Positions 39,203 through 62,891 of a stretch of 64,000 bases of DNA are shown here, piece by piece (position 1 is the stretch's first letter; every line of letters begins with the position of its first letter). The notes beneath the pieces were generated by a model. It did no database searches. It had not been told where the DNA came from and saw only the letters and a program-made list of their open reading frames with translations. The position numbers and the translations under genes were made by a program. The stretch comes from Escherichia coli (lineage in GTDB: Bacteria; Pseudomonadota; Gammaproteobacteria; Enterobacterales; Enterobacteriaceae): the NCBI RefSeq assembly GCF_041886205.1, contig NZ_CP169029.1. One strand, 5' to 3'.

Positions 39203-40541
39203 CATAAGCGCTAACTTAAGGGTTGTGGTATTACGCCTGATATGATTTAACGTGCCGATGAATTACTCTCACGATAACTGGTCAGCAATTCTGGCCCATA
39301 TTGGTAAGCCCGAAGAACTGGATACTTCGGCACGTAATGCCGGGGCTCTAACCCGCCGCCGCGAAATTCGTGATGCTGCAACTCTGCTACGTCTGGGGCT
39401 GGCTTACGGCCCCGGGGGGATGTCATTACGTGAAGTCACTGCATGGGCTCAGCTCCATGACGTTGCAACATTATCTGACGTGGCTCTCCTGAAGCGGCTG
39501 CGGAATGCCGCCGACTGGTTTGGCATACTTGCCGCACAAACACTTGCTGTACGCGCCGCAGTTACGGGTTGTACAAGCGGAAAGAGATTGCGTCTTGTCG
39601 ATGGAACAGCAATCAGTGCGCCCGGGGGCGGCAGCGCTGAATGGCGACTACATATGGGATATGATCCTCATACCTGTCAGTTCACTGATTTTGAGCTAAC
39701 CGACAGCAGAGACGCTGAACGGCTGGACCGATTTGCGCAAACGGCAGACGAGATACGCATTGCTGACCGGGGATTCGGTTCGCGTCCCGAATGTATCCGC
39801 TCACTTGCTTTTGGAGAAGCTGATTATATCGTCCGGGTTCACTGGCGAGGATTGCGCTGGTTAACTGCAGAAGGAATGCGCTTTGACATGATGGGTTTTC
39901 TGCGCGGGCTGGATTGCGGTAAGAACGGTGAAACCACTGTAATGATAGGCAATTCAGGTAATAAAAAAGCCGGAGCTCCCTTTCCGGCACGTCTCATTGC
40001 CGTATCACTTCCTCCCGAAAAAGCATTAATCAGTAAAACCCGACTGCTCAGCGAGAATCGTCGAAAAGGACGAGTAGTTCAGGCGGAAACGCTGGAAGCA
40101 GCGGGCCATGTGCTATTGCTAACATCATTACCGGAAGATGAATATTCAGCAGAGCAAGTGGCTGATTGTTACCGTCTGCGATGGCAAATTGAACTGGCTT
40201 TTAAGCGGCTCAAAAGTTTGCTGCACCTGGATGCTTTGCGTGCAAAGGAACCTGAACTCGCGAAAGCGTGGATATTTGCTAATCTACTCGCCGCATTTTT
40301 AATTGACGACATAATCCAGCCATCGCTGGATTTCCCCCCCAGAAGTGCCGGATCCGAAAAGAAGAACTAACTCGTTGTGGAGAATAACAAAAATGGTCAT
40401 CTGGAGCTTACAGGTGGCCATTCGTGGGACAGTATCCCTGACAGCCTACAAAACGCAATTGAAGAACGCGAGGCATCGTCTTAACGAGGCACCGAGGCGT
40501 CGCATTCTTCAGATGGTTCAACCCTTAAGTTAGCGCTTATG
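39203..40541 (+). mobile_element. IS186 (IS4 family) with 11-bp target duplication GGAAATATCCC
   Basis: 23-bp inverted repeats CATAAGCGCTAACTTAAGGGTTG at 39203-39225 and 40519-40541; direct repeats at 39192-39202 and 40542-40552. Confidence 0.85.
39252..40370 (+). CDS. insL: IS186 transposase (InsL)
   Basis: 372 aa; translation MNYSHDNWSAILAHIGKPEELDTSARNAGALTRRREIRDAATLLRLGLAYG... matches my recollection of IS186 InsL. Confidence 0.85.
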   Translation: MPMNYSHDNWSAILAHIGKPEELDTSARNAGALTRRREIRDAATLLRLGLAYGPGGMSLREVTAWAQLHDVATLSDVALLKRLRNAADWFGILAAQTLAVRAAVTGCTSGKRLRLVDGTAISAPGGGSAEWRLHMGYDPHTCQFTDFELTDSRDAERLDRFAQTADEIRIADRGFGSRPECIRSLAFGEADYIVRVHWRGLRWLTAEGMRFDMMGFLRGLDCGKNGETTVMIGNSGNKKAGAPFPARLIAVSLPPEKALISKTRLLSENRRKGRVVQAETLEAAGHVLLLTSLPEDEYSAEQVADCYRLRWQIELAFKRLKSLLHLDALRAKEPELAKAWIFANLLAAFLIDDIIQPSLDFPPRSAGSEKKN

Positions 40542-41660
40542 GGAAATATCCCCCTCTTCACCGCTCGAATGGTAAATAAGTCCTGCCAGTCTTGCCATAT
40601 ACTCTGCATTTTTAGCAGCATATTCCCGGCAATGTCTTAAAGGCCCCAATCCCCCCAGCTTCGATTCCACATCATTGTAATAATCCGTCCAGATTCTGGC
40701 AGCCTGAGGAGAAAAGTGAAGGCAACGTCGTTCACCACTCATCGCCAGACTTTCATCAATAAGCTCATTGATCCTCTCTTCAAACAAATCCTGATACTGT
40801 GATGAATAATTATCTCCGGTTATTATCCTTGTCCCCTGCGTTGATGTTGGTTGACACATCAAAAACCTTGCATGATGTCCTGACGTTTTCACAATTTCTT
40901 TTTTTCGCGTACAAAAACCTTTGTGGTAAACATCAGGCTGAATCATCACCGATATCGTCAGTCTTGGCTCCTTCAAATTAATTCCGGGAGATGATTTCCT
41001 GTCGATGAAAAGAGAACCTCCATCCCACAAAGTGTTAATAATTCCCAGTTTACTCATGGCCCGGCTGTCAAAAATTACCCCCCCTTCACTGGATACAAGA
41101 GCAAAAGAGCGATTGCTGTCGGAATAATATTTTAACATTCCCTCTATCGTTGTCTCATTAAAAATTGTTCGACGTATCTGCGGCGGAACAGGAGGTTTAT
41201 TCAGATGCGTTTCAAGCTCTGATTCTGTTGCCTTGTAATCTTTACCGGCACGAATCTCTTTATGAAATTTTGATTCCAGCGCTTTTTGTTTTTGCTCCCA
41301 TATTTCCTTTTCTGTACTGTAATTCTCAACCAGTTTCGCGTATTCTTCCGCCAGGGCTTCATCCCTGAGATAAAATGCTTTCATAAACACTTTATCCACG
41401 GTCGTTTTCCTTTCACCGGAATCAGCCAGAATCAGAGAGTAAAGATTAACAGGCCCATGTAAATTTCCAGGTCTGCACACGTCAATCTGATTCTGACAGG
41501 CAATTGAGATCGCTGTTAATGCGGATGTTGCCACCATAGCCAAAGGTGCCTGTGTATTTTTTTGAGTTTCAATTATTGCATTTCTCACCAGCGGTGGTAG
41601 TGCATATATCGGATAAGGATTTTCTGGTGCAAGTAAGCACATAAAAGCCTCTCTTTTCAT
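40530..41660 (-). pseudogene. DUF3987 (YfjI-like) gene, N-terminal 376 codons, disrupted by IS186
   Basis: Resembles CP4-57 YfjI; frame ends inside the IS186 terminal repeat. Confidence 0.55.
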
Positions 41661-41860
41661 TAATGGGTTAGTAAAATAGCAGCAAATCCCGCTACAATAG
41701 CGAAAATAGCTGCTATTCAGACCTGATGCTCTGAGAAATACAGAGCATTTGTAGATCTGATGTTTAATAAACCGATAAGGTTAATTCAGTGAAGACTGTA
41801 TTATTCACCACGAAATATCATTCATATTTCTCATTCTTAATACCTCCAGAAATTATTTCA

Positions 41861-42200
41861 CTAATACCTTTCCCCCGGTCTTTTCCCTTTCTCCAGAACC
41901 ATAGTGTAAATATTAACGGCCCCACGTAAATTTCCGGGACTGCATACGTCAACCTGATTCTGACAGGCAATTGACATCGCTGTTAATACTGACATTGCAA
42001 CCAGAGTCAGAGGTACTTGTTTATTGTATTGAGCTTTAATTATTGCCTTCCCTATCATTGATGGTCATGCATATACTGAATACGGCATATCCGGTTTGAT
42101 GTAAGACATAAATGCTTCCTTTTTCGTAATACGTTTCGGTTATAGCAGCAATTACCGCTACAATAGCGACAATAGCTGCTCTTTCAACAATGAATGCTGG
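41861..42200 (-). repeat. Degenerate tandem duplicate of the yfjI-like 5' end and upstream region
   Basis: 41900-42190 aligns with 41440-41700; the 65-aa ORF 41861..42058 repeats the N-terminal motif (...SIACQNQVDVCSPGNL...). Confidence 0.55.
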
Positions 42201-42284
42201 AAATTCTGTTTATCAATTAAACTTCTGGATAAATTGTTCTTATGCTTCTTTTTCCTCCTGAGGTGATCACGTGATGACAAAAAC

Positions 42285-42593
42285 TTATCTGCTCATGGTC
42301 ATATCTGAAGAAAGCGTATGTCGCACTTCGTCATTAACACCTTTGACTGCTGATCTGGCAGGTACAGTATGTAAAGTAAGCCATTCGTCAATAGCTGATG
42401 AACGCCAGCCCACAGAACCACTACCAAGACGTACCGGCCTGGGGAAGGTTGCATCGTAGTATTTCGATAACGGATTCATTTTTTCGTAAATTGTCGAACG
42501 AGATATACCTAACAATTGGCTCAGTTCAGGCATCCGTAAGATGCGTGAAGGAGTCCAGCAGTATCCGGATTGATCTGGCATTTTATCCCCCAT
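42285..42593 (-). CDS. alpA: AlpA-family phage regulatory protein
   Basis: Motif RILRMPELSQLLGISRSTIYEKMN...YDATFPRPVRLGSGSVGWRSSAIDEWL. Confidence 0.7.
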   Translation of the reverse strand: MGDKMPDQSGYCWTPSRILRMPELSQLLGISRSTIYEKMNPLSKYYDATFPRPVRLGSGSVGWRSSAIDEWLTLHTVPARSAVKGVNDEVRHTLSSDMTMSR

Positions 42594-42786
42594 AGTGTGG
42601 TGAACTGTCGTTACAGTTTGTATTCCCCGGGTAAATTTGTCTGCGTAAAAAAATGGGCTGAGCAAAAAGACAATAAATAATTAAAAATCAATACGATAGA
42701 AAACAACAGCATTATTGTTATTTTACTTTCACCTTATCGCTGTCGATTCTCATTATCATTCATTGGTAAAAAACAGCAAAAGAGGC

Positions 42787-43553
42787 CCTGGTAATGACTC
42801 CAGTCAGTAGTACAGTGTTTTCGACAAATGAACCAATGGCTTTTCGTGAATTTCCAGGGAGCGTGAAAAGCAAATCGTTTTCCGGGCTGGTCGTTTGATG
42901 TGAGTACGAAGTGTCAGATTGTTGCACTCAATGCGCCGGGTAAATATCTTGCCGACAAGATGCTTATCCTGTGGCATTTCTCTGGTATAACTGCTCCGGT
43001 TGTCTCTGGTTATCATGCCTGTGGAGAATGGCTTCAGGAGTTCCGGCAACTCACGACATGTTTCATCAGTGCGAGGACCAAAAGTGTAAGCCAGCACACC
43101 TCCAGATTTGGTGTTATACGCATACCAGTGCCACTGCTGACGAGCTTTGTTTTCGACAAAACTCCATTGTTCATCAAGTTCGCAGATAAGCGTCACATCG
43201 GCACTGGCGACTGGAGATGTGGTTACTTTGCGTGGTGAGCGTTTTATAAAGTGAGAATGACGGTGTTGATATCCACCTTCAGCGTTCTGGAACTATCGCG
43301 AACCCCGACTCCGTTATGAACCATTTCAACAATTTGCTCTTTAATGCCTGGTTTTCGGGTTTCGTAGATGTAATTCAGTTGAAATACACACGTTTGCAGG
43401 ATTAGCACTGGAAACGCTCATGATCTGAGGTGCTGTGATCATAATGGTACACTTTATAGGAATTACAGCTGGGAGAATGTACTGTAACTGTTGCCATATG
43501 GTCTCCAGATACCAATAGAATACCACATTAATCTATCGTCAGAAGGCATCACC
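42787..43553 (-). mobile_element. Divergent IS1-family element
   Basis: 767 bp; IS1-like termini (GGTAATGACTCCAG... and ...GAAGGCATCACC); InsA-like C-terminus (MVHNGVGVRDSSRTLKVDINTVIL) and InsB-like ORF. Confidence 0.6.
42804..43196 (-). CDS. IS1-family InsB-like protein
   Basis: 130 aa; resembles IS1 InsB (DEQW...RQ.W..YAY...TQRIE.NL.LR.H..R). Confidence 0.6.
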   Translation of the reverse strand: MTLICELDEQWSFVENKARQQWHWYAYNTKSGGVLAYTFGPRTDETCRELPELLKPFSTGMITRDNRSSYTREMPQDKHLVGKIFTRRIECNNLTLRTHIKRPARKTICFSRSLEIHEKPLVHLSKTLYY

Positions 43554-43693
43554 GGGGCCTTCTGACATAATCTGTTAATACGTGTACTATTACCCTGTTC
43601 AGAAAATATTGATTCAAAAATGAAAACCAGTTAACAGAAAAGCAAAATGATATAATGTTAAAATTTTATATAGTGCAATAAAAGGAGAATGTT

Positions 43694-45511
43694 ATGTATA
43701 ATTTTATCACTATAATGTATGATGTCTTTTCATGTTTTGGTGTTCTGGCTAAAAACCAGAATACCCGTGACATCCGAAATATTAAAAATTTTTCCTCACA
43801 TCAATATTCACTGGGCGACATGTTTGATGAATTAATAAACATTATTGATAAAGAACAAGTATTGAGTACAGAACAACGAAAAGTTATATTTAGGAGATAT
43901 GAAGATCTCTATGTTAAGCTAATGCACTATTCTGTTTTTACAGACCAAACACATCAAATAATAAAACAAAAATATTTTAATGACATTGTACCAATGATTC
44001 TCGCACTCGACATCAGGAACACATATCGCCCGGATAATGAGATGGCATTTTACTATCATATTCATTCTTTTCTCACTCAGATACCGGATAATGAGGATGA
44101 TATATATCATGCTGCAAGGACATATCTGCGAAATTACGTTAAGTTATGTTTATCCGGATACACACCAGCGAATGCGCATTTCAAAGATATCTTTGATGGC
44201 GTATATGAATTCATTCGTAATATTCGCAAAAACAGTACACCAGGAAAAACAAAACTTATCGCAACTATCAACACATGCAAAGAAACCTGTAAACATCTGC
44301 TTTATTTAAGTAATGAAGACAAGGAAAAAATAATTTCTGACTTAGATAAAGTTCAGGTTGCATGTTATTATCTCACTATATTACTGGCTTTCGAAAGACG
44401 AACTTCATTAACAAGCACCCTGGCAACTTTATATAAAATGCTGATAAGCGAAAGAGAAGTTTCAGAATATGAATGCCAGTTATTATATTTAACCAACCCA
44501 ATAGATGTAATGAATATACTGAACAAATACATATATTACTTTCCTAATGAAAACTCACCATTTTATACACTGAAAATTGACAGTGCATTATCGTGGGATG
44601 CCATTGACGCAATACGAGACTATAGTATTTCTGATATTTATCTTTATCCTGAACAAAAAACAATAAATTGTGTCGTTGAGATTGAAAACATTGTCTTTGG
44701 CGGTTACATTTATACATTGAACAACGGCGTCACATTACAAAACATAGAAAACACTTTAAAAGATTCTTCATGCCATTATGTCTTAAATGGCTATACAGAA
44801 TTTGTTAACTGTTTGATACAACTTACTTCAGGAAAGACTGAAAGTGTTCATCGCACCATCAATAAACTGAACTATGAGAAATTACCTTTTGGATTTATCA
44901 TTGCCGCGTTTGCTATACTAAAGATAGCATTTAAAATAAAATTCAGTAAAAATCATGTAAATATCCGAGCATTATTAAATGACATCAATTATTTTATGAC
45001 TTATCAGGGCGAGTCCATTAACCTTATTTCACTGGATCACGAATACCCAGAGTCCTGTCTTCAAAATGACACAAACACATATTTATTAGGAAGAGTAATA
45101 TTTCTGTATAACTCAATGATTTATAAGTTCATAAACTGTCAGGAACATGAAACCAATAACATTCACTCAGCTATGATAAATAACCTATTACAGGAAGTTG
45201 ATATAGCCCTTGGTAAAATAAATAACATTATAGACAGCAGAAACATATCAGCCCCCCATGAACTGGCAAATATTCTTACCCGCGAAAAAATACTTACAAC
45301 ACGGGAAAAAAAAGGAAACCTGATAAGCCTGTTTGATGGATTCACTTTATTCCATTGTGTTGGAATGATAACCTTTCTTATCCATTATCTCAGAACACCT
45401 GAAGAAAAAGTTGAAAATATATTTATGTTATATGGTGCAGATAAAAACAATAAACTACGCAGAAGACTGATTTATGACGCACTAGGAATAATTCAGTCTC
45501 AGCAGGAGTGA
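43694..45511 (+). CDS. Hypothetical protein, 605 aa, AT-rich orphan in the int-alpA variable slot
   Basis: Long uninterrupted ORF; very low GC versus flanks; no motif I can recognise. Confidence 0.5.
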   Translation: MYNFITIMYDVFSCFGVLAKNQNTRDIRNIKNFSSHQYSLGDMFDELINIIDKEQVLSTEQRKVIFRRYEDLYVKLMHYSVFTDQTHQIIKQKYFNDIVPMILALDIRNTYRPDNEMAFYYHIHSFLTQIPDNEDDIYHAARTYLRNYVKLCLSGYTPANAHFKDIFDGVYEFIRNIRKNSTPGKTKLIATINTCKETCKHLLYLSNEDKEKIISDLDKVQVACYYLTILLAFERRTSLTSTLATLYKMLISEREVSEYECQLLYLTNPIDVMNILNKYIYYFPNENSPFYTLKIDSALSWDAIDAIRDYSISDIYLYPEQKTINCVVEIENIVFGGYIYTLNNGVTLQNIENTLKDSSCHYVLNGYTEFVNCLIQLTSGKTESVHRTINKLNYEKLPFGFIIAAFAILKIAFKIKFSKNHVNIRALLNDINYFMTYQGESINLISLDHEYPESCLQNDTNTYLLGRVIFLYNSMIYKFINCQEHETNNIHSAMINNLLQEVDIALGKINNIIDSRNISAPHELANILTREKILTTREKKGNLISLFDGFTLFHCVGMITFLIHYLRTPEEKVENIFMLYGADKNNKLRRRLIYDALGIIQSQQE

Positions 45512-45698
45512 AACGTTAAAACAGGCAAATTGTTTTTTATAAATAGGAGATTGTTGAGTAATCCCCTGTTTATAAAAATACGCTTTCCTGACGATCTGAT
45601 AATTATCAGCTCAATACATTTGACATAAAAGCGGTTCCTTAATTACTACTGCCACGATCACATATCAAATCATGATCGTACAATATACATTTTCACTA

Positions 45699-46901
45699 TT
45701 ATTTATTCACAATTTGAGACATCACATAATCCGCCCATGCCTGCATCATCGGTACACGCTGCTCCAGTAGATCAGTACGATGATATGCCGCCTCAACCTT
45801 ATTTTTCAGCGTATGAGCGAGCGCCCTTTCCGCCAGATCCCGCGAATACCCCTGTTCACTACACCAGTCCCTGAATGTTGAGCGAAAACCATGTGCCGTG
45901 GCAACTCGCCCCGGAATGTCACTGACGGCTTTCTTTTTACGCAGAAAACTTGTCAACACCATATCGGAAAGGATCTGCTGCTTTCTGGGTGAAGGGAACA
46001 CCAGTTCATCATGCAGGCCACGTATATTTTCCAGAATGTAAATAGCCTGCCGGGATAAAGGAACACGATGCTGTAGCCTGGCTTTCATTCTTTCTGCAGG
46101 TATAGTCCATACCCGCTTATGAAAATCAATTTCAGCCCAGCGCATTCCCCTGGCTTCGCCCGAGCGAGTTGCTGTAAGTATCACCATTAATAACAGTGCG
46201 CGGGTAACATTATAAGGTTCATCACTATACACACTGGTCGCCACAAAAAGCGGTAACTGCCTCCAGGGCATTGCTGGTTGGTGTTCATCACGTCCTCTTG
46301 TCTGCTGAGGAAGCAAATGGTCAACCACATCAACAGGATTTGCCACACAAAAACCGTGCGCCCATCCCCACTGCATAACAACATGAATGCGCTGTTTAAC
46401 CCGGCTTGCCGTTTCTGACAAGGTTAACCAGACTGGACGCAGTGTTTCTGCCACGTCCGCAGCCGTAATCGAATCCAGCGTTTTTGCTCCCAGTTGAGGA
46501 AACGCGTAATTCTCAAGCGTCGATAACCACTGCCTTACATGCTTTGGATTTTCCCATCCTGGAGACAATTCTGCATGTACACGCCTGGCTGCATCGGCAA
46601 ATGTTGGGATAACGACTTTCTCAGATTCAGCCTTTTTAATCTCCAGAGGATCATCACCTGCAGCAAGTTGCTCTCGCATTATCCGGGCAGTACGTGCAGC
46701 TTCAGCAATACTGACCTCTGGGTAAGTTCCCAATCCAGCATTACGTCTTTTTTGTGTCACCGGACTTACATAACGAAAAACCCATTTCCCCCGCCCCTTT
46801 ACTGAAGAAGGATGAAGGGTCAGTCCGGTAATTCCCCCATGGGGCAATGGTTTGTCATCAGGTTTGATATGTCTTGCTTTCGTATCCGTCAATACTGCCA
46901 T
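45699..46901 (-). CDS. int: Tyrosine integrase, P4/CP4-57 type
   Basis: 400 aa; N-terminal MAVLTDTKARHIKPDDKPLPHGG... and C-terminal catalytic region (HGFRSTFRDW...LAH...Y). Confidence 0.85.
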   Translation of the reverse strand: MAVLTDTKARHIKPDDKPLPHGGITGLTLHPSSVKGRGKWVFRYVSPVTQKRRNAGLGTYPEVSIAEAARTARIMREQLAAGDDPLEIKKAESEKVVIPTFADAARRVHAELSPGWENPKHVRQWLSTLENYAFPQLGAKTLDSITAADVAETLRPVWLTLSETASRVKQRIHVVMQWGWAHGFCVANPVDVVDHLLPQQTRGRDEHQPAMPWRQLPLFVATSVYSDEPYNVTRALLLMVILTATRSGEARGMRWAEIDFHKRVWTIPAERMKARLQHRVPLSRQAIYILENIRGLHDELVFPSPRKQQILSDMVLTSFLRKKKAVSDIPGRVATAHGFRSTFRDWCSEQGYSRDLAERALAHTLKNKVEAAYHRTDLLEQRVPMMQAWADYVMSQIVNK

Positions 46902-47061
46902 ACGCTAATTCCCGTCACTCTGGTATGCCATCCAGTATGCCATTAGTCTCTCGCTTCACTAAGAATACATTAGATAATATCGGACAACAAAAAGTGTAAT
47001 ACATTGTTTATAATGAAATTATATAACACCCCTGGATTAAGTCAGATTTATTTCAGGCGGT

Positions 47062-47522
47062 CCCCCTCACCGCCATATTTAAAGAAGAGCTCGTACGAAA
47101 GTACGGGCTTTTTTTTCGTATATTGCACACACCGGGGGGATGAGAATCCCCGACCGGGGGTCGACAACTGGCGGCAGCCAGTTGGACAGACCGTGAACGC
47201 AGTGAGCGGGCTGCCCGCAGGGCGAGCGAAGCGAGTCAATCCCCCCCTCACCGCCATATTTAAAGAAGAGCTCGTACGAAAGTACGGGCTTTTTTTTTCG
47301 TATATTGCACACACCGGGGGGATGAGAATCCCCGACCGGGGGTCGACAACTGGCGACAGCCAGTTGGACAGACCGTGAACGCAGTGAGCGGGCTGCCCGC
47401 AGGGCGAGCGAAGCGAGTCAATCCCCCCCTCACCGCCATATTTAAAGAAGAGCTCGTACGAAAGTACGGGCTTTTTTTCGTGTATTGCACACACCGGGGG
47501 GATGAGAATCCCCGACCGGGAT
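47062..47522 (+). repeat. Tandem ~180-bp repeats (about 2.6 copies), each beginning with a tRNA-Ser(GGA)-like 3'-end copy (attachment core)
   Basis: Unit starts at about 47062, 47243 and 47424; copies 2 and 3 carry AATCCCCCCCTCACCGCCA; each unit also contains a hairpin plus T-run (GCTCGTACGAAAGTACGGGCTTTTTTT) and further stem-loops. Confidence 0.7.
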
Positions 47523-47528
47523 ACTTAG

Positions 47529-48215
47529 TTAATGCAACGGTTCACTCTTTGTCGCCGCGACTAATGGGCGAATTTTGTCACGAGTCTCCCAGACCGGAGG
47601 GATTTCCTCCAATTTAGTGACAGAAGCTCGTACAAAAGGCACTCGTGCAAGAGTCATAATCGTATCCAACCAACGGTCACGAATAATGCGATCCGCCCTT
47701 TCATGACTCGGGTCATCCAGCTCAATAACACAGACTATTTTATTGTTCTTCTTTGAAACCAGAACATAATCCATTGCCATGCCATTATAAATTGCAAAGA
47801 AACGCTTTCTTTCTTCTTCGCTAAACTCAGGTTGTTCTGGATAGTTGAGCAAGCGCCCCAGAGAGACCTGGCAATGGATATGACAATAATGTCCAAACCA
47901 TTTCTCCAGATTATCGAAATACATTTTTTCACAACGCGTGATTAACCACTCTTTTCCTTCCAATAAAATACCTTCGGCAACCATTCCCTGAAATAACTCA
48001 TCTCGTTCTTGCCAACGAGAGTCACGATAGGTTTTCTGCGGTATATAGGTCCTTGTCGACGACTTAGCAGCAGGGGAAGTTGCAGATGAAGGGACTGGTT
48101 GCGATTTAGCGATGATTACCGATGAGGCAACTTTTCGGAGTGTCAATTTTCTGGCAACAGCAAAACCGGCGACAAATGCAATTGTCAAACAAGTTACAAA
48201 AGCCATAAAGCTCAT
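47529..48215 (-). CDS. DUF2726-like membrane-anchored protein (restriction-endonuclease-like fold)
   Basis: 228 aa; N-terminal TM helix; C-terminal motif KIVCVIELDDPSHERADRIIRDRWLD. Confidence 0.45.
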   Translation of the reverse strand: MSFMAFVTCLTIAFVAGFAVARKLTLRKVASSVIIAKSQPVPSSATSPAAKSSTRTYIPQKTYRDSRWQERDELFQGMVAEGILLEGKEWLITRCEKMYFDNLEKWFGHYCHIHCQVSLGRLLNYPEQPEFSEEERKRFFAIYNGMAMDYVLVSKKNNKIVCVIELDDPSHERADRIIRDRWLDTIMTLARVPFVRASVTKLEEIPPVWETRDKIRPLVAATKSEPLH

Positions 48216-48766
48216 AATTAATTTTCACTTATCCATGTTGATTATATTTCATTACCAATGTTACTCGCTGAAGCGTGTTACATGCCAACAATGCAACGAT
48301 CAATATATAGTTAGTATCATGTTTTGATTATTACAACCATCCCTATTTTGCCATTGCAGCTTGCCTTCCACAAAAAAAATAACAACAAACAATATTAGCC
48401 AAAGAATTAATTAAGATTAACCTTGCATTTATAATATTATCCCTAAAGAATAAATCAGAGGAATATATTCGGTGTTAATCAGTCAGTCAAATTATGGCCC
48501 ATTGTTGATTAAACCTCATAAGCAAAATTGGCACCAGATCTCCTGTACAGGTTGAATGGCCGAAAAAAGATAGGCAGATGCTCGCTTTTTTGGCTTCTGG
48601 AAGAAAAACTCTCCGCACTGGCAGTATTACACTGGTCTGATGCTATGACGAAAAATGCCTGGTAAGAGTATCTAAACCAGACTCCAGTTCAGCTTATCAA
48701 CACGCTCAAAGTCGCCCCCCTGAACGCTAACCTGAAGTTAAAGTCTTTGCTGTTAATGAAATAAAA

Positions 48767-48790
48767 CAAAGCCCGGTTCGCCCGGGCTCT
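48767..48790 (-). terminator. Rho-independent terminator of phoH
   Basis: Minus-strand GCCCGGGCGAACCGGGC hairpin followed by TTTGTTTT. Confidence 0.55.
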
Positions 48791-48805
48791 GCACCGATAA
48801 CACAC

Positions 48806-49729
48806 TTAACTGTATGCATGCAGCGTACGTTGGCAAAGTGCCGAACGTACGCAATCCTCTTTACCGAACCGGACGATCCCAACCATTTCATCTTCTTCGA
48901 AACGTTCCAGCGCGTCACTTAATCCGGAGCACACGCCGCGAGGCAAATCGCATTGCGTGATATCACCGTTGACGATAACTGTCACGTTCTCCCCGAGGCG
49001 GGTTAAAAACATTTTCATTTGCGCGGCAGTCACATTCTGCGCCTCGTCAAGAATGACGACTGCATTTTCAAAGGTACGTCCACGCATATAGGCGAAAGGC
49101 GCAATTTCCACCTTCCCTATTTCCGGTCGCAGGCAGTACTGCATAAAGGAAGCCCCTAAGCGCCGGACCAGCACGTCGTAAACCGGGCGAAAATAGGGAG
49201 CAAACTTTTCTGCGATATCTCCAGGTAAGAAGCCAAGATCTTCATCGGCTTGCAGAACTGGACGGGTGACGATAATCCTGTCGACATCCTTATGTATCAG
49301 GGCCTCTGCCGCTTTTGCTGCGCTGATCCAGGTTTTTCCGCACCCGGCTTCGCCCGTGGCGAATATCAGCTGCTTACTCTCAATAGCCTTCAGATAGTGC
49401 AATTGCGCTTCATTACGCGCGAGGATGGGCGAAGTATCGCGACTGTCGCGGGCCATACCAATGGCTTCTACGCCGCTCATTTGCACAAGCGAGGTGACCG
49501 ATTCTTCTTCACGCTGCTTATGGCTGCGCGAATCCCGTCTCAGCACACGTTTTGCCTCGCGACGAGCTTTGATCACTGCTTTTTGTCTTCCCATGGAGAG
49601 CACCTTGAGTTGTTTGTATTCATCACACGCGCCGTTGGCAGCGCGATTATGCGCACGAACATCAGAGGGTTGGCTTCCTTGTAAGCCATAGTTTGCTTTT
49701 GGATAAAATGCCGAAAAACGGCTACGCAC
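48806..49729 (-). CDS. phoH: PhoH (phosphate-starvation-inducible ATPase); start codon uncertain
   Basis: PhoH/YbeZ motifs (GEAGCGKT, VILDEAQN); synteny with efeB. Confidence 0.85.
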   Translation of the reverse strand: MRSRFSAFYPKANYGLQGSQPSDVRAHNRAANGACDEYKQLKVLSMGRQKAVIKARREAKRVLRRDSRSHKQREEESVTSLVQMSGVEAIGMARDSRDTSPILARNEAQLHYLKAIESKQLIFATGEAGCGKTWISAAKAAEALIHKDVDRIIVTRPVLQADEDLGFLPGDIAEKFAPYFRPVYDVLVRRLGASFMQYCLRPEIGKVEIAPFAYMRGRTFENAVVILDEAQNVTAAQMKMFLTRLGENVTVIVNGDITQCDLPRGVCSGLSDALERFEEDEMVGIVRFGKEDCVRSALCQRTLHAYS

Positions 49730-50069
49730 ACCGTTTGCGGCGTCGGTAACACGAGTAAAGAGAGGAAGTGAGAAAAATACAGAGTGACGAAGTTGCTACC
49801 GGAGGAGAAAACTCCGCGAGTGGTGGCGCGTTGATTATCTAAAACATGTCCAGTATAGGACGTTACCATCCGCGATCTCCATAGTGACTGACTATCACTG
49901 CCGGGAACTTCCGCTGCTACTTAATAAGTACAACAGATCTCGCATTTATTGCAACAATATATTTACTTATATTTAACTATAAAACACCATTTTAGTGACA
50001 TTAGTTTCTACTGGAAAGATGACAGAGTGATGACAGTGATGAAAAAAGCTGTGTGCTTTCAGCAGGATT

Positions 50070-50405
50070 TGCATCAGGCATCAGTGCACGATCGCCGGAT
50101 GCGGCGTAAACGCCTTATCCAGCCTACCAAACCCGCACCGATTATAGGCATGATAAGACGCGCAAGCGTCGCATCAGGCATCAGTGCACGATCGCCGGAT
50201 GCGGCGTAAACGCCTTATCCAGCCTACCAAACCCGCACCGATTGTAGGCATGATAAGACGCGCAAGCGTCGCATCAGGCATCAGCGCACGAACGCCGGAT
50301 GCGGCATCAACGCCTTATCCCGCCTACCGAACCCGCACCGATTGTAGGCATGATAAGACGCGCAAGCGTCGCATCAGGCATCAGCGCACGAATGCCTTAT
50401 TCGCC
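50070..50405. repeat. REP/BIME cluster (three tandem units)
   Basis: Repeated GCCGGATGCGGCGTAAACGCCTTATCCAGCCTAC and partner palindromes between efeB and phoH. Confidence 0.75.
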
Positions 50406-50413
50406 TAAAAACA

Positions 50414-51685
50414 TTAAACCCGCAATAACGCGCTTCCGAGATAATCATTCGCGTCCTTCACTCCCGGCAGCGCAAAAAAATAACCGCCGCCGATGGGTTT
50501 AACGTATTCCTCCAGCGCTTCGCCATTGAGCCTTTTTTGTACTGTCAGGAAGCCTTTTTCCAGATCGTGTTGGTAGCAGACAAACAGTAGCCCCATATCC
50601 AGTTGCCCGGAGTTGGTGACGCCCAGTGAATAACTGTAGCCACGACGCAGCATCAGGCTGGACTCACTCTCCGCCGTACGGGGATTCGCCAGCCGGATAT
50701 GGCTGTCCAGCGCGATCACCTTCCCTTCAGGGTCGCTGGCGTAATCAGGCACATCATGCTCATGCTGCATTCCCAGCGGCGCACCGGTTTGCTTATCACG
50801 GCCAAAAATCGTCTGCTGTTCTTTCAGCGGCGTTCTGTCCCAAAATTCCACTCGAAACTGAATCAAGCGTACTGCCTGATAGCTGCCACCAATTGTCCAC
50901 GCAGGCTCCTGCTGATCTGCCGTTACCCACACCACTTTTTGCATCAACTTATCATTCTGGCTATCGGGATTGGCAGTGCCGTCTTTGAAACCCAGCAAAT
51001 TAATCGGCGTCTCTTTGCCTTTACTACGCGCTGCGTGATCGGAAATAAACCCTTCCCGCTTCCAGCGCACACTGAGCAAATCCGGCGTGTGTTTGATGAT
51101 ATCGCGCAGCGCATGGATCACCGTGTCCTGGGTGTTGGCGCAAATTTGTAGCAACACATCACCATGACATAACGCCGCATCCAGCGAGTCGTTGGGGAAA
51201 CGCGTCATCTTCTGCAACTTTTTCGGCATCTGTGGCGCAAGGCCAAACCGCTCATCAAACAATGAGTGGCCCACCGATAACGTTATGGTGAGATTATCGG
51301 GCGCAATGTAGCCGCCAAGAATGCCGGAATCGAGTGGTGGCAGGCGCGGATTTGGCGTTTCTGGTGCCGCTCCGCCCTGAGTCAGAAAAGCAAAACGCTG
51401 AGTCAACAAGCGAAACAACCGTTCAAGATCGGCTTTATCGCTGGCAAGCACATCAAACGCCACCAGCATCATTGCGGCCTGTTGTGGCGTCAGGATCCCT
51501 GCCTGATGCTCACCATAAAACGGCTGTTTCTCATTGCGTGCATCCGGTGAAAGCGTGCCCGGTGCACTTTGCGTTTTTTGTGCATGAACGACCGGACAAC
51601 TTCCCGCCAGCGCCAGCGCACCAATCCCTTTCAGTAAACGTCGGCGTGACGGTTCATTCACGCCGTTTTCATCTTCATACTGCAT
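50414..51685 (-). CDS. efeB: Dye-decolorizing (Dyp-type) peroxidase EfeB, Tat-secreted
   Basis: 423 aa; twin-arginine signal [16 protein letters not shown]. Confidence 0.9.
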
Positions 51686-51690
51686 AACGC

Positions 51691-52818
51691 TTAATCCAGT
51701 CCCAGCACACCGCGAAGTTGCGCCAGATCTTCCGCCAGCGCAGTAATCGGTCCTTTCAGTGCATTCCGGTCGGCATCGGTCAATTTGTCGTAGGTTTCAA
51801 AACCGTCTTTAGTACGGTATTTCGCCAGAATGGTATCGACCTTTTTAAAGTTGGCATCGACTTTTGCCAGCAGTTCCGGGTTGGCTTTTTGCAGTTGTGG
51901 ACGCAGCAAATCGACAATTTTCTGCGAGCCTTCAACGTTAGCCTGGAAATCCCACAGATCGGTGTGGCTGTAGCGATCTTCTTCACCGCTAATTTTGCTG
52001 GCTGCCACTTCCTCAATCAGTCCGGCTGCGCCGCCGACCACTTTTGAAGGTGGGAAAGCCAGTTCACTGATGCGTTTTTGCAAATCGACCACATCTGTAT
52101 AAAGCTGCTCAGCGTACTGATCCATCCCTTTGGTGGTGTTGTCGCCAAACAATGCTTTTTCCAGACGGTGGAAACCAGTGAATTTTGGGTCGGCGGCTTT
52201 TTGCTCGTAATCATCTTCACGGGCGTCAATGCTGCCATCCAGATCGGAGAACAGTTCAGCAATCGGTTCAATGCGCTCATAGTGCTGGCGCGTCGGCGCA
52301 TACAGTGCTTTCGCTTTTTCGATATCGCCAGCTTTAATCGCGTCGGTAAAGGCTTTGGTGTCGGTCACCAGCTGCGTGGTTTCCGCCATGACATACGCTT
52401 TATATGCAGTAATTGCACCACCAAGACTTAACAGCGCATCACTTTGCGCCGCATCCGCCGTTGCCTCACCTTTGACGATCAACTTCCCTTTCGGGTTAGT
52501 CAGCAGACCGCAGGTCATATCGTATTCGCCAGGCTGTAAATTCGCCGTCATTTTCTGGCTAAAACCAGGGGCGATATTTTCCCGCTCTTCCACCACCATC
52601 ACGCCTTTGAGGATCTCCCACTCCAGCGCCTTCTGGCTATGGTTCTGAATAATGAACTGTGTTTTCCCGGCGTTAACCGTAATGGTCATCGGTTCGCACT
52701 GCTTATCCGTCACGGTCACTTTGACCTGCGGCACATCAGCGGCGTTAGCCATAAAAGCAGAAGAAAACAGCGCAGCCACGCTCAACTGCAATGCGTTACG
52801 GCGGAAGTTAATGGTCAT
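51691..52818 (-). CDS. efeO: Iron uptake system component EfeO
   Basis: 375 aa; signal peptide; cupredoxin/M75 region; synteny. Confidence 0.9.
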
Positions 52819-52875
52819 GACGAGACTATCCCTTTAAAGTATGTTGTAACTAAGCAAGAGTTTGCGTCGTATTTG

Positions 52876-53715
52876 TTACGCGGAGCGAGACGCTGTCGCC
52901 CCTGCGCGTGGTGGCAGAGCAAATGCCACCAGCGCCGGGATGAGATAAATAAACCAGACGGCGACTTCGCTGACGCTCGGCGCTTCCTGATAGCCAAAAA
53001 TCCCTTCCATCAGCGTGCCAAACAGCGAGTGAGTTGAGAGCACCGCACTCATATCGAAGGCGATTTCCTGAAAGTGGTTCCACAATCCGGCTTCATGAAA
53101 TGCGCGAATGGCACCAGCTGCCAGCCCTGCGGCGACGAAGAGAATAAACAGGCTGGTCCATTTAAAAAATGCACCAAGATTGAGGCGAATACCGCCCCAG
53201 TAGAGCAGGAAGCCTAGCACCACGGCAGTAGCAAGACCGAGCATTGCACCCAGCGGCGGCCAGATCCCGACATCTTGTTGAAATGCCGCCAGCAGGAAAA
53301 AGACCGACTCCAGCCCTTCCCTTGCAACGGCAAAAAAGACCATCATCACCAGCGCCCAGCCATGATGATTTCCACGCTGCAATGCGCTATCGACTGCCTG
53401 TTCCAGTTGCACTTTGACGTTGCGCGACACTTTGCGCATCCAGAAAACCATCCAGGTAAGGATCACCACGGCGATCACCGCCACGATACCTTCAAACAGT
53501 TCCTGTTCTTTTTGCGGAAATTCGCCGGTGGTTTCGTTAATGAAGATACCCAAGCCCAGGCACAACGCAGCGGCAAGCAACACGCCAATCCACATCACAC
53601 CAATCCATCGGCCTCGCTGGGTACGCTTAAGATAGCTGGCAATCAAACTGACAATCAGCGCGGCTTCAAGTCCTTCGCGCAACATAATGAGAAACGGAAC
53701 AAACATGCCACCCAC
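52876..53715 (-). CDS. efeU: Ferrous iron permease EfeU (FTR1 family), apparently intact
   Basis: 279 aa; REGLE-type motifs (REGLEAALIV and REGLESVFF). Confidence 0.85.
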   Translation of the reverse strand: MGGMFVPFLIMLREGLEAALIVSLIASYLKRTQRGRWIGVMWIGVLLAAALCLGLGIFINETTGEFPQKEQELFEGIVAVIAVVILTWMVFWMRKVSRNVKVQLEQAVDSALQRGNHHGWALVMMVFFAVAREGLESVFFLLAAFQQDVGIWPPLGAMLGLATAVVLGFLLYWGGIRLNLGAFFKWTSLFILFVAAGLAAGAIRAFHEAGLWNHFQEIAFDMSAVLSTHSLFGTLMEGIFGYQEAPSVSEVAVWFIYLIPALVAFALPPRAGATASRSA

Positions 53716-53763
53716 CCTTAAACGTTTTTCTGAGTCAATCTATGCAAAGAAAAGTAAATCGCA

Positions 53764-53783
53764 GTGATAGCGATTATCATTAC
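53764..53783 (-). promoter_or_regulatory. Putative Fur box upstream of efeU
   Basis: GTGATAGCGATTATCATTAC resembles the GATAATGATAATCATTATC consensus. Confidence 0.4.
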
Positions 53784-53915
53784 GGCAAAGAAAAACACAA
53801 GCGGAATGTTTATAAAATGATGTTGGAATGTAAACAAAGAGAGGTAATGCCAGGGGATATAAACGATTATTCCAGGGTAGAAAGATGGGATTGTTTGCAA
53901 AGAACCATGTGTTCT

Positions 53916-53955
53916 TGCCGGATGCCGCGTAAACGCCATATCCAGCCGACAAAAC
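53916..53955. repeat. REP element between efeU and putP
   Basis: GCCGGATGCCGCGTAAACGCCATATCCAGCC. Confidence 0.6.
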
Positions 53956-54248
53956 TGTCCAGACTCAATGCATCAGAGCTTCCATGTAAAACTGATAAGC
54001 GGGTGTATCAAGCAATTTCGTCCATCCGCGATTATCAAATCTAACTTTTTGCCCGGAACATAATAACAGCTCGGGTGTTGGTGGCGTCAAAATCGCTGAA
54101 GCGTTCCCCTAAGGCCGGGACAGCAGGGGGCGGCGGCGATTGGCCGCCCCCTGCGCGCTCCCTGCACCATTCAATTTATATGGCGAGGCACATTAAGGGA
54201 GCGCAACCCGCTGCTGAAGCCAAACAAAACCGCCGCAGGCTAAGTCCC

Positions 54249-55757
<1,509 letters not shown>

Positions 55758-55945
55758 CTAAAGTCTCCAAAAAATTATTATCGGCAATGTCGAAACTTGC
55801 CGTTATATCTGCCACCGGAACGGGGTAACAGAGTTTATGTTTTACCAGGGCGACCGTATCCTGCCGGAAGCGCTGGTTATTCACAATCGATTTAACACAC
55901 CATTTACATTAAATTTTAGTGCTCAGCGACACTATTTTTCATCAG

Positions 55946-56153
55946 GTTGCACTCTCTCACATTTTTTGCGGTTGCACCTTTCAAAAATGTTAACTGCCGC
56001 AGAGAAAAAGTCTGAGTTATTTTTTTAATCACTGTCATATCGATTTCTTTTATTAACATTTCATTCATTTTTAAGCTTGCTACGCAAGTCACATTTAACA
56101 TGGTTGCACAAAGTTGCAACATCATGGATATTTCACGATAACGTTAAGTTGCA
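55946..56153. promoter_or_regulatory. put control region with five GTTGCA PutA operator motifs
   Basis: GTTGCA at 55946, 55971, 56103, 56113 and 56148 in the putP-putA intergenic region. Confidence 0.6.
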
Positions 56154-56179
56154 CCTTTCAGAACAACAGGAGTAATGGC

Positions 56180-59100
56180 ATGGGAACCACCACCATGGGG
56201 GTTAAGCTGGACGACGCGACGCGTGAGCGTATTAAGTCTGCCGCGACACGTATCGATCGCACGCCACACTGGTTAATTAAGCAGGCGATTTTTTCTTATC
56301 TCGAACAACTGGAAAACAGCGATACTCTGCCGGAGCTACCTGCGCTGCTTTCTGGCGCTGCCAATGAGAGCGATGAAGCACCGACTCCGGCAGAGGAACC
56401 ACACCAGCCATTCCTCGACTTTGCCGAGCAAATTTTGCCCCAGTCGGTTTCCCGCGCCGCGATCACCGCAGCCTATCGCCGCCCGGAAACCGAAGCGGTT
56501 TCTATGCTGCTGGAACAAGCCCGCCTGCCGCAGCCAGTTGCTGAACAGGCACACAAACTGGCGTATCAACTGGCCGATAAACTGCGTAATCAAAAAAATG
56601 CCAGTGGCCGCGCAGGTATGGTCCAGGGGTTATTGCAGGAGTTTTCGCTGTCATCGCAGGAAGGCGTGGCGCTGATGTGTCTGGCGGAAGCGTTGTTGCG
56701 TATTCCCGACAAAGCCACCCGTGATGCGTTAATTCGCGACAAAATCAGCAACGGTAACTGGCAGTCACACATTGGTCGTAGCCCGTCACTGTTTGTTAAT
56801 GCCGCTACCTGGGGGCTGTTGTTTACTGGCAAACTGGTTTCCACCCATAACGAAGCCAGCCTCTCCCGCTCGCTGAACCGCATTATCGGTAAGAGCGGTG
56901 AACCGCTGATCCGCAAAGGTGTGGATATGGCGATGCGCCTGATGGGCGAGCAGTTCGTCACTGGCGAAACCATTGCGGAAGCGTTAGCCAATGCCCGCAA
57001 GCTGGAAGAGAAAGGTTTCCGTTACTCTTACGATATGCTGGGCGAAGCCGCGCTGACCGCCGCAGATGCACAGGCGTATATGGTTTCCTATCAGCAGGCG
57101 ATTCACGCCATTGGTAAAGCGTCCAATGGTCGTGGCATCTATGAAGGTCCGGGCATTTCAATCAAGCTGTCGGCGCTGCATCCGCGTTACAGCCGCGCCC
57201 AGTATGACCGGGTAATGGAAGAGCTTTACCCACGTCTGAAATCACTCACCCTGCTGGCGCGTCAGTACGATATTGGTATCAACATTGACGCCGAAGAGGC
57301 CGATCGTCTGGAGATCTCCCTCGATCTGCTGGAAAAACTCTGTTTCGAGCCTGAGCTGGCAGGCTGGAACGGTATCGGTTTTGTTATTCAGGCTTATCAA
57401 AAACGCTGCCCACTGGTGATTGATTACCTGATTGATCTCGCCACCCGCAGCCGTCGCCGTCTGATGATTCGCCTGGTGAAAGGCGCGTACTGGGATAGTG
57501 AAATCAAGCGTGCGCAGATGGACGGCCTTGAAGGCTATCCGGTTTATACCCGCAAGGTGTATACCGACGTTTCATATCTCGCCTGTGCGAAAAAGCTGCT
57601 GGCGGTGCCGAATCTAATCTACCCGCAGTTCGCGACGCACAACGCCCATACGCTGGCAGCGATTTATCAACTGGCAGGTCAAAACTACTATCCGGGTCAG
57701 TACGAGTTCCAGTGCCTGCATGGTATGGGCGAGCCACTGTATGAGCAGGTCACCGGGAAAGTTGCCGACGGCAAACTTAACCGTCCGTGTCGTATTTATG
57801 CTCCGGTTGGCACACATGAAACGCTGCTGGCGTATCTGGTGCGTCGCCTGCTGGAAAACGGTGCTAACACCTCGTTTGTTAACCGTATTGCCGACACCTC
57901 TTTGCCACTGGATGAACTGGTCGCCGATCCGGTCACTGCTGTAGAAAAACTGGCGCAACAGGAAGGGCAAACTGGATTACCGCATCCGAAAATTCCCCTG
58001 CCGCGCGATCTTTACGGTCACGGGCGCGACAACTCGGCAGGGCTGGATCTCGCTAACGAACACCGGCTGGCCTCGCTCTCTTCTGCCCTGCTCAATAGTG
58101 CACTGCAAAAATGGCAGGCCTTGCCAATGCTGGAACAACCGGTAGCGGCAGGTGAGATGTCGCCCGTTATTAACCCTGCGGAACCGAAAGATATTGTGGG
58201 CTTTGTGCGTGAAGCCACGCCGCGTGAAGTAGAACAGGCGCTGGAAAGTGCGGTTAATAACGCGCCAATCTGGTTTGCCACTCCTCCGGCTGAACGCGCG
58301 GCAATTTTGCATCGCGCTGCCGTGCTGATGGAAAGCCAGATGCAGCAACTGATTGGTATTCTGGTGCGTGAAGCCGGAAAAACCTTCAGTAACGCCATTG
58401 CCGAAGTGCGCGAAGCGGTCGATTTTCTCCACTACTACGCCGGACAGGTGCGGGATGATTTCGCTAACGAAACCCATCGTCCATTAGGGCCTGTGGTATG
58501 TATCAGCCCGTGGAACTTCCCGCTGGCGATTTTCACCGGGCAGATCGCTGCCGCACTGGCGGCAGGTAACAGCGTACTGGCAAAACCGGCAGAACAAACG
58601 CCGCTGATTGCCGCGCAAGGGATCGCCATTTTGCTGGAAGCGGGTGTACCGCCAGGCGTGGTGCAATTGCTGCCAGGTCGGGGTGAAACCGTGGGCGCGC
58701 AACTGACGGGTGATGATCGCGTGCGCGGGGTGATGTTTACCGGTTCAACCGAAGTCGCTACGTTACTGCAGCGCAATATCGCCAGCCGCCTGGACGCTCA
58801 GGGTCGCCCTATTCCGCTCATCGCTGAAACCGGCGGCATGAACGCGATGATTGTCGATTCTTCAGCACTGACCGAACAAGTAGTAATAGATGTGCTGGCC
58901 TCGGCGTTCGACAGTGCGGGTCAGCGTTGTTCGGCACTGCGCGTGCTGTGCCTGCAAGATGAGATTGCCGACCACACGTTGAAAATGTTGCGCGGCGCAA
59001 TGGCCGAATGTCGGATGGGTAATCCGGGTCGCCTGACCACTGATATCGGTCCGGTGATTGATAGCGAAGCGAAAGCCAATATCGAGCGTCATATTCAGAC

Positions 59101-60142: not shown

Positions 60143-60181
60143 ACAGGTAGCCGGAGGATGTTACAACCTCCTCCGGCATCT

Positions 60182-60820: not shown

Positions 60821-60926
60821 GCGCTCTCCCCTCTTGTAGATTGGCAACAGGATAGCAAAACCCCCGCCCGGCCTCGACCTTCTGCACTCTCATCGCGCAC
60901 GGATGCATGTTTTATGTGCAACTGTT

Positions 60927-60943
60927 TTGACCGTTTAGTCCAC
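60927..60943. promoter_or_regulatory. Putative RutR operator
   Basis: TTGACCGTTTAGTCCAC resembles the TTGACCAnnTGGTCAA consensus. Confidence 0.3.

Positions 60944-61050: not shown

Positions 61051-62891
<1,841 letters not shown>

Follow-up and report, generated by a model that had tools for sequence, protein, structure and literature searches.

The window, i.e. the whole stretch of DNA analysed here, comprises 64,000 nucleotides of the Escherichia coli contig NZ_CP169029.1. Read from right to left its core genes stand in the order rutABCD, rutR, putA, putP, efeUOB and phoH, as an earlier note on this DNA had stated. Their positions were transferred from the annotation of strain 6EVA; this strain and wlxctx60 are 100.0% identical (rounded) to the window over positions 48800–64000, the 15.2-kb phoH–rutD core. 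Leftward of phoH we find a 590-bp AT-rich spacer, a DUF2726 gene, 2.5 tandem units of 182 bp, an integrase and at least 47 kb of a genomic island, which continues up to position 1. The features are the following:

1–47061, no strand assigned: right-hand 47 kb of a serX-integrated island, delimited by its match to the island of strain ZYB62 and by the end of identity with 6EVA at 47061/47062
45699–46901, minus strand: P4-type tyrosine integrase, 400 aa (Pfam Arm-DNA-bind_3, Phage_int_M and Phage_integrase)
47062–47075, plus strand: attR core CCCCCTCACCGCCA, equal to the 3'-terminal 14 nt of serX (cryptic ser'X)
47062–47520, plus strand: 2.5 native tandem units of 182 bp (TRF period 182, 2.5 copies, 98% matches)
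47521–48762: allele-specific filling of the serX–phoH interval, 1242 bp, 40% GC
47529–48215, minus strand: DUF2726 gene, 228 aa (Pfam PF10881, E 2.7e-18, residues 90–205)
48216–48762: AT-rich spacer, 36% GC, presumed site of the DUF2726 promoter
48763–48805, minus strand: phoH terminator region, 100% identical to the 43 bp past the K-12 phoH stop
48806–49594, minus strand: phoH in its 262-aa RefSeq form (NCBIfam equivalog PRK10536)
50035–50420: REP cluster (6EVA annotation)
50414–51685: efeB (6EVA annotation)
51691–52818: efeO (6EVA annotation)
52876–53715: efeU (6EVA annotation)
54249–55757: putP (6EVA annotation)
End at 60142: putA, then rutR, then rutA–D (6EVA annotation)

The phoH translation starts with MGRQKAV and ends with HAYS*; its score of 510.8 bits exceeds the curated cut-off of 380 and places the protein in the PRK10536 family. 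The longest open reading frame which contains the gene extends to 49729. K-12 phoH is annotated with 354 aa, the N-terminal extension of which is out of frame in the window. Past the stop codon the terminator forms a hairpin (48792–48766) followed by a run of T. In K-12 the same region adjoins the end of pgaD and, judging by the alignment, it is the right-hand breakpoint between the two alleles described below.

In MG1655 the order is phoH-pgaDCBA-dgcT-IS3-ymdE-ycdU-serX-ghrA, so that the earlier note had correctly given the pga genes as the K-12 neighbours of phoH. They are indeed missing from this position in the window. None of the K-12 proteins PgaA–D, DgcT, YcdU and GhrA gives a tblastn match anywhere in the 64 kb. 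When the K-12 phoH–serX interval is compared as DNA with blastn, only three pieces of it are found: one IS3 copy, which belongs to the island, the repeats downstream of serX and the first 43 bp past the phoH stop. ARAGORN detects no tRNA gene in the window.

The repeats had been interpreted in the earlier note as attachment repeats lying between the DUF2726 gene and the island. The order is as described there; the repeats, however, are native units downstream of serX which are also present in K-12, and attR corresponds only to their first 14 bp. In each 182-bp unit the 3' end of serX is repeated, together with its terminator hairpin and a segment that resembles RtT, and the 14-bp core occurs three times within the array. 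The number of units is 3.5 in K-12, 2.5 in 6EVA, 4.5 in wlxctx60 and 2.5 in E. albertii. These units resemble the 178-bp RtT repeats of tyrT-tyrV, which are likewise arranged in tandem past a tRNA gene and repeat its 3' end in every unit; the two arrays share weak collinear sequence motifs. They differ in the tRNA, which is here Ser-GGA, and blastn similarity is confined to motifs of about 35 nt. Membership in the RtT family (Rfam RF00391) was rejected, since the scores, 38.2 and 38.6 bits, do not reach the gathering threshold of 45. In RefSeq the O26 copies of these repeats carry the label RtT sRNA. A match to MicC at 47020–47124 (37.6 bits against 90) was dismissed as a chance result driven by the terminator.

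The island has an integrase next to this junction, with 185.9 bits for the NCBIfam integrase domain. Its amino acid sequence is 100% identical to that of ZYB62, 99.2% to its counterpart in O26:H11 strain 11368, whose serX island bears urease genes, and 96.8% to that of VE-T9. Homology of the window with the serX region of 6EVA starts at 47062, exactly where the attR core begins. The ZYB62 island has the core CCCCCTCACCGCCA at either end, one copy closing an intact serX, and the junction in the window has it too. Its reverse complement, TGGCGGTGAGGGGG, is the 14-bp direct repeat reported for OI-43/OI-48 and SRL-PAI (PMC3064760), and excision of OI-43/48 and SRL-PAI at such repeats has been demonstrated experimentally (PMC3064760, PMC7545054). 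The window shares several traits with the SRL-PAI, OI-43, OI-48 and SpLE1 islands, which integrate into serX or serW: a P4-type integrase at the island end beside a cryptic ser'X, insertion into the 3' end of serX and the identical 14-bp repeat at the junction. Known members of this group are SRL-PAI of Shigella flexneri and the tellurite-resistance and adherence island of EHEC O157:H7. The cargo is different. In the window we find a partial darT with darG and a type I hsdR, copies of IS66, IS3 and IS4, a uhpC-like transporter and an iol cluster for myo-inositol catabolism; by analogy with ZYB62 the complete island would also carry Ag43 and a CbtA/CbeA module. Genes of the ter, ure and iha groups are absent from it, as are resistance genes. 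A 605-aa ORF which adjoins the integrase has no match in PADLOC, NCBIfam or Pfam, and no role in defence can be assigned to it.

Between the repeats and the phoH terminator, tblastn and blastn find no pgaABCD, dgcT or ycdU. The breakpoints of the 1242-bp filling were set from an alignment and from a blastn comparison of the window with the K-12 interval; its K-12 counterpart (ycdU-ymdE-IS3-dgcT-pgaABCD) has about 10.9 kb. The GC content is 40% in the DUF2726 filling, 44% in the pga filling and 53% in the core, and the values below the core average would fit a foreign origin for either filling. Among 5426 complete E. coli genomes the DUF2726 segment is present in 1051 (19%), and 4410 have a match to the K-12 pga operon.

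The DUF2726 protein has a hydrophobic N-terminal segment and a predicted C-terminal domain of the PD-(D/E)XK type, the restriction-endonuclease fold, and its match to PF10881 is significant; the fold of the family has been assigned to the PD-(D/E)XK superfamily (PMC3424549). We considered a role in a defence system, which is unsupported: PADLOC, NCBIfam and PDB give no match, and in PHROGs there is just family 14167 (E 2.4e-11), of unknown function. The spacer holds no ORF longer than 30 aa, and it is 79–93% conserved in E. albertii, in Escherichia sp. MOD1-EC7003 and in a 1.45-kb Escherichia-like contig. These are also the three DUF2726 loci found in a scan of species representatives, in which the short contig is filed under a Collinsella MAG; the scan relied on exact peptide words and is uninformative for E. 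fergusonii, E. marmotae, Salmonella and others. Intact orthologues are present in E. albertii and in MOD1-EC7003, which has phoH followed by the spacer and DUF2726. In E. albertii NBRC 107761 the order is efeOB-phoH-spacer-DUF2726-2.5 repeats-serX-ghrA. The synonymous divergence (dS) from E. albertii is 0.42 for DUF2726 and 0.36 for the adjoining phoH; dN/dS of the DUF2726 gene is 0.14–0.16, and by this measure it is under purifying selection. The same position in E. albertii and a synonymous divergence like that of phoH indicate that this allele is old and not borne by the island. The view that the DUF2726 gene is accessory DNA which arrived with the island is not supported, as the gene lies outside the island boundary and in an orthologous position in E. 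albertii.

Intervals between serX and phoH devoid of pga have already been published, as have serX islands. In the part of PMC5635171 which concerns them, strains Tob1, Fec101 and B-8638 are described as devoid of pga, ycdT and the IS between phoH and csgG, with serX-ghrA retained. The window resembles these strains by the absence of pgaABCD and ycdT; according to the same part of that paper they keep serX, ghrA and ycdXYZ. It differs in its occupied serX and in a gap whose filling, DUF2726 and the spacer, has been delimited by breakpoints. The frequent absence of the diguanylate cyclase YcdT (DgcT) is also mentioned there, by Cimdins et al. 2017 citing Povolotsky and Hengge 2016 (PMC5635171).

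Comparison with other strains separates the island from the loss of pga. In 6EVA and wlxctx60, which are closest to the window by core sequence, the layout is ghrA-serX-repeats-DUF2726-phoH, with neither island nor pga, and the arrangement of NCTC9080 matches it. Window positions 47062–48790 align with 6EVA gap-free and with 2 SNPs; both have the same 2.5 repeat units with their unit-specific variants, and the identity stops exactly at 47061/47062. ZYB62 has a near-identical island, spanning from serX to the same integrase and situated between serX and an intact ycdU-ymdE-IS3-dgcT-pgaABCD-phoH. It matches window positions 1–6167 at 100%, 6160–38294 at 99.8% and 40541–47136 at 99.6%. There are thus relatives with no island and no pga, and an island which stands alongside pga, which shows that the two are independent. 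None of the database genomes joins this exact island to this exact core lineage, so that the order of events rests on comparison and not on an observed before-and-after pair.

The layout is very probably explained by an old, short serX–phoH allele plus a separate insertion of an island into serX, as judged from the sequence comparisons. Two independent events, each of them ordinary, would account for it. The host lineage carries the short allele, formed by the 182-bp repeats, the 1.24-kb DUF2726 segment and the phoH terminator, whereas the long allele of K-12 has ycdU-ymdE-dgcT-pgaABCD between the same landmarks; the two fillings are essentially alternatives for one chromosomal slot. The short allele is at least as old as the split between E. 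coli and E. albertii. Later an island of about 69 kb with its P4-type integrase would have entered the 3' end of serX, presumably by integrase-catalysed site-specific recombination, leaving a 14-bp duplicate (attR, ser'X) at 47062–47075. From ZYB62, which also provides the estimated island length, the intact serX and attL should lie some 22 kb left of the window start; attL is predicted to read CCCCCTCACCGCCA followed across the junction by GATTACAAGCG, with serX-ghrA located there, and no pga is expected at either junction of the island. Placed between serX and the native repeats, the island would have moved serX away from phoH and removed nothing. It is unlikely that the empty-site strains are excision derivatives which lost pga along with the island, given their clean serX junction and the same arrangement in E. 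albertii.

The earlier note had also offered, as one alternative, that the island replaced pga. In this case ycdU-dgcT-pgaABCD would have been removed either on insertion or by a later island-associated deletion, for example one mediated by IS elements, and DUF2726 would be the outermost island gene. The island is rich in IS elements, and IS-mediated co-deletion of the backbone beside OI-48 is documented (PMC3064760). Nevertheless we give this possibility practically no credence: it is contradicted by the identical serX-repeats-DUF2726-phoH arrangement of the island-free 6EVA, wlxctx60 and NCTC9080 and by ZYB62, in which the same island coexists with pga. Furthermore DUF2726 lies beyond the attR core and is in place in E. 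albertii without this island, and at the breakpoints there are neither IS elements nor remnants of pga or ycdU. It is also unlikely, to a lesser degree, that the DUF2726 segment is a recent foreign insertion which, in E. coli, took the place of an ancestral pga block. Its low GC content and minority frequency would agree with such an origin, as would the vicinity of DUF2726 genes to mobile elements, frequent in other phyla (PMC3424549), and the existence of the phoH-pga adjacency in two deeply diverged allelic forms. However the gene in E. albertii agrees in position, orientation, spacer and repeats, with a dS close to that of phoH; MOD1-EC7003 shares the arrangement, no integrase, IS or direct repeat is found at the breakpoints, and the gene is under purifying selection. 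Nor can the opposite polarity, with DUF2726 ancestral and pga derived, be claimed, because the phoH-pga adjacency is also present in a second pga allele, whose pgaB, pgaA and GGDEF gene are diverged by about 20% (just 78–80% identical to K-12). The pga arrangement is therefore old too.

A displaced pga, with a copy elsewhere in the genome, for instance as cargo of another island, is very improbable. There are precedents: VE-T9, 99.9% identical over phoH–rutD, has a divergent phoH-pgaDCBA-GGDEF module in its own serX island, and XD35, with DUF2726 beside phoH, bears the module about 2.15 Mb from there, on an island that adjoins nfeF. The module is found at 90% identity or more in about 110 genomes, and in 80 genomes no match to the K-12 pga operon exceeds 90% identity, a level that corresponds to the divergent copy. 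Against this, neither the 47-kb island portion of the window nor the other 22 kb of its ZYB62 twin contains pga, and at most about 80 of the 1051 genomes with the DUF2726 allele (8% or less) can carry the divergent copy alone, a bound drawn only from the totals (1051, 4410, 80 and about 110). A copy elsewhere would be compatible with the explanation of the local layout preferred here.

Beyond correct annotation these results matter little. The K-12 order is not the species norm at this locus: about one fifth of E. coli genomes lack the pga operon beside phoH, O26:H11 and O111:H11 EHEC among them. To locate the integration site of a serX island one should rely on the 14-bp core and not on the native repeats. 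Strains with the short allele are predicted to be PNAG-negative unless they carry an island-borne copy, which is relevant to biofilm phenotyping and to vaccines or antibodies directed against PNAG. Tentatively, and with some doubt, we suggest that the serX–phoH interval may be polymorphic in the genus Escherichia, with two long-lived alleles: a single membrane-anchored DUF2726 nuclease-fold gene versus the PNAG biofilm operon plus a diguanylate cyclase. Both alleles would have been kept since before the E. coli/E. albertii split and exchanged by homologous recombination through the serX repeats and phoH, and lineages devoid of pga would occasionally be re-supplied by islands with the deeply diverged phoH-pgaDCBA-GGDEF module. 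If this were true, it would be a sign that PNAG production is under balancing or niche-dependent selection, possibly with a functional trade-off with the DUF2726 gene.

The surroundings of phoH were laid out from the ORF listing, family searches and a comparison with annotated genomes, with coordinates on the + strand.

Features in the window
1-47061: island DNA, with an integrase at its end
45699-46901, minus strand: tyrosine integrase, 400 aa (domains Arm-DNA-bind_3, Phage_int_M, Phage_integrase)
47062-47520: tandem 182-bp units, 2.5 copies
47529-48215, minus strand: DUF2726 gene, 228 aa (Pfam PF10881, E 2.7e-18)
between the DUF2726 gene and phoH: AT-rich spacer
48806-49594, minus strand: phoH (NCBIfam PhoH equivalog, 510.8 bits, cut-off 380)
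beyond phoH, in order: REP cluster, efeBOU, putP, putA, rutR, rutA-D

In MG1655 (K-12) the order is phoH-pgaDCBA-dgcT-IS3-ymdE-ycdU-serX-ghrA. We have found no protein-level trace of PgaA-D, DgcT, YcdU or GhrA anywhere in the window, and no tRNA genes in it. The layout and the untraced Pga proteins agree with the earlier note, which had placed phoH beside the DUF2726 gene, the repeats and the island instead of pga.

Two alleles of the serX-phoH interval can be distinguished: a short one with the DUF2726 gene and a long one of K-12 type with ycdU-ymdE-dgcT-pgaABCD. Homology between K-12 and the window breaks within the last partial repeat unit (47520) and again at 48763, 43 bp beyond the phoH stop and just past its terminator hairpin. 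Between these positions the window has 1242 bp at 40% GC and K-12 about 10.9 kb at 44% GC; the core has 53% GC. No integrase, IS or direct repeat was found at the two breakpoints. Of 5426 complete E. coli genomes, 1051 have the DUF2726 segment, among them O26:H11, O111:H11 and UMNK88, and 4410 a match to the K-12 pga operon; this integrase and the DUF2726 allele occur together in about 93 genomes. According to a published account, pga and ycdT are absent between phoH and serX in Tob1, Fec101 and B-8638, and the diguanylate cyclase YcdT is often absent among E. coli strains (PMC5635171). Both components, pga-less strains and serX islands with a 14-bp repeat, are already described, and the finding is an ordinary one.

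Only 8 genomes cover the DUF2726 segment in part. A third junction type is present in E. coli E8 (locus L010, 7323-9282): serX is followed by pieces of ycdU and pgaC with IS1 between them and by a truncated pgaD, which runs into 266 bp matching window 48517-48790; phoH comes next. This arrangement resembles a hybrid of the short and long alleles.

The closest relatives without the island define its boundary. The 15.2 kb phoH-rutD core has 100.0% (rounded) identity to E. coli 6EVA and wlxctx60, and only 8 of the 5426 complete genomes reach at least 99%. Both relatives are annotated as ghrA-serX-(repeats)-DUF2726-phoH: island and pga are both missing. From 48790 down to 47062 the window aligns to 6EVA without gaps and with two SNPs, and the 2.5 repeat units are identical, unit-specific variants included. 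Identity ends exactly at 47061/47062. The first 14 nt of the common sequence, CCCCCTCACCGCCA, are those with which serX ends, so that the island is inserted in serX itself, not in a downstream repeat copy. By sequence, the 14 bp at 47062-47075 are attR; in ZYB62, a strain with the same island, these 14 bp close an intact serX at the opposite island end. Read as the reverse complement, the motif is TGGCGGTGAGGGGG, the published 14-bp direct repeat of OI-43/OI-48 and SRL-PAI (PMC3064760), for which integrase-dependent excision at the 14-bp repeats has been shown (PMC3064760; PMC7545054). O26:H11 11368 has a urease-bearing serX island with an identical junction sequence, and the integrases of the two islands share 99.2% identity.

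The 182-bp units had been regarded as attachment repeats of the island. This does not hold, since the same unit is also found downstream of serX in K-12 (3.5 copies, between serX and ycdU), 6EVA (2.5), wlxctx60 (4.5) and E. albertii (2.5). The units are native, not created by island integration; they supply the three att core copies of the window. In each unit the serX terminator hairpin is combined with about 21 nt from the 3' end of serX and some 130 nt resembling the tyrT RtT repeats, a weak likeness for which blastn yields just short collinear motifs. Membership in RtT was rejected (38 bits in Rfam, where the gathering score is 45); the O26 copies carry the RefSeq label "RtT sRNA".

Has the island replaced pga, as the earlier note suggested? 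The absence of pga here is confirmed; the island as its cause is not, because ZYB62 keeps pga and island-free strains of the window's lineage are already without it. ZYB62 has the order ghrA-serX-island-integrase-ycdU-ymdE-IS3-dgcT-pgaABCD-phoH. Its island matches the window at 1-6167 (100%), 6160-38294 (99.8%) and 40541-47136 (99.6%); the two differ by an ISEc23 copy that only ZYB62 has, at the equivalent of window 6167, and by an IS4-family copy that only the window has (39204-40540, with a 372-aa transposase ORF at 39252-40370). One element therefore occupies both backgrounds. By analogy with ZYB62, to the left of the window start we should find the rest of darT, hsdS, hsdM, Ag43, a CbtA/CbeA module, serX and ghrA, not pga.

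Displacement of pga to another place in the window's genome is improbable. Some islands carry a divergent phoH-pgaDCBA-GGDEF module flanked by IS3-family and IS5-family copies. VE-T9, of the window's lineage, has it within its own serX island (locus L007, 29862-39644); in XD35 (L014, 14001-22943) it is found on an nfeF-adjacent island with a 438-aa integrase, and DUF2726 adjoins the strain's own phoH. The module is present in about 110 RefSeq genomes, and 80 genomes are without a K-12 pga operon match above 90% identity, which limits displaced pga to no more than about 8% of the short-allele genomes. The identity of the module to K-12 forms a gradient: 96.6% in phoH, 91–92% in pgaD/pgaC and 78–80% in pgaB/pgaA/GGDEF.

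The DUF2726 gene had been considered island-borne accessory DNA. One genome per species was scanned, and the outcome contradicts this: E. albertii NBRC 107761 has it in the same slot (efeO-efeB-phoH-spacer-DUF2726-2.5 repeats-serX-ghrA-ycdX), with a dS from the window of 0.42, close to that of the neighbouring phoH (0.36), and a dN/dS of 0.16. These values fit vertical co-divergence and purifying selection, which makes the gene a long resident of the slot, not island cargo; we do not claim that it is the ancestral state. A second pga allele, with the identities to K-12 given above for the island-borne module, also adjoins phoH, so that the pga arrangement is old too. The N-terminal segment of the DUF2726 protein is hydrophobic, and the C-terminal domain is PD-(D/E)XK, a restriction-endonuclease fold (PMC3424549; PMC3710099). 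It has no match in PADLOC, NCBIfam or PDB, and in PHROG only one of unknown function. At most we infer a nuclease-like protein that is tethered to the membrane and under purifying selection.

Escherichia sp. MOD1-EC7003 (L012, 2641-12684) also has phoH-spacer-DUF2726. Here phoH directly follows putP, efeUOB is missing, and after DUF2726 a three-gene molybdopterin-oxidoreductase-like cluster takes the place of serX and the repeats; of the latter, a 70-bp fragment is all that is left, about 4.3 kb away. The same phoH-spacer-DUF2726 arrangement, with 93–97% identity to the window, is found in a 1.45 kb contig of a Collinsella sp. MAG (JAIJJM010000775.1), almost certainly an Escherichia contaminant of that bin.

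In the core, efeU is an intact ORF (52876-53715) and a pseudogene in K-12. The N-terminal extension of the 354-aa K-12 PhoH is out of frame at 49595-49869 (residues 1-32 and 32-354 align in different frames), which supports the shorter 262-aa RefSeq start. Rfam Ysr251 (Yersinia sRNA 251, antisense type) matches 48811-49004 on the + strand (188.5 bits, gathering score 100), wholly within the phoH 3' end on the opposite strand; conservation of phoH is probably all that lies behind this match.

As for the island cargo, a 605-aa ORF (43694-45511, + strand, about 32% GC) immediately beside the integrase is conserved in the serX islands of O26:H11 11368 and ZYB62, with no match in Pfam, NCBIfam, PADLOC or PHROG. 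At 51-4768, darT, truncated at the edge of the window, and darG (575-1654, NCBIfam DarG 451 bits) lie between hsdS and hsdR of a type I restriction-modification operon: they are a toxin-antitoxin defence pair embedded in this locus. A complete-looking myo-inositol catabolism cluster at 22054-36310 has iolB, iolE, an iolC-like gene, iolG, iolD, mmsA, an ABC sugar transporter and a MurR/RpiR regulator; the same cluster recurs, with 99.3–99.7% identity over 12.9 kb, in several bovine isolates and in ATCC 8739.
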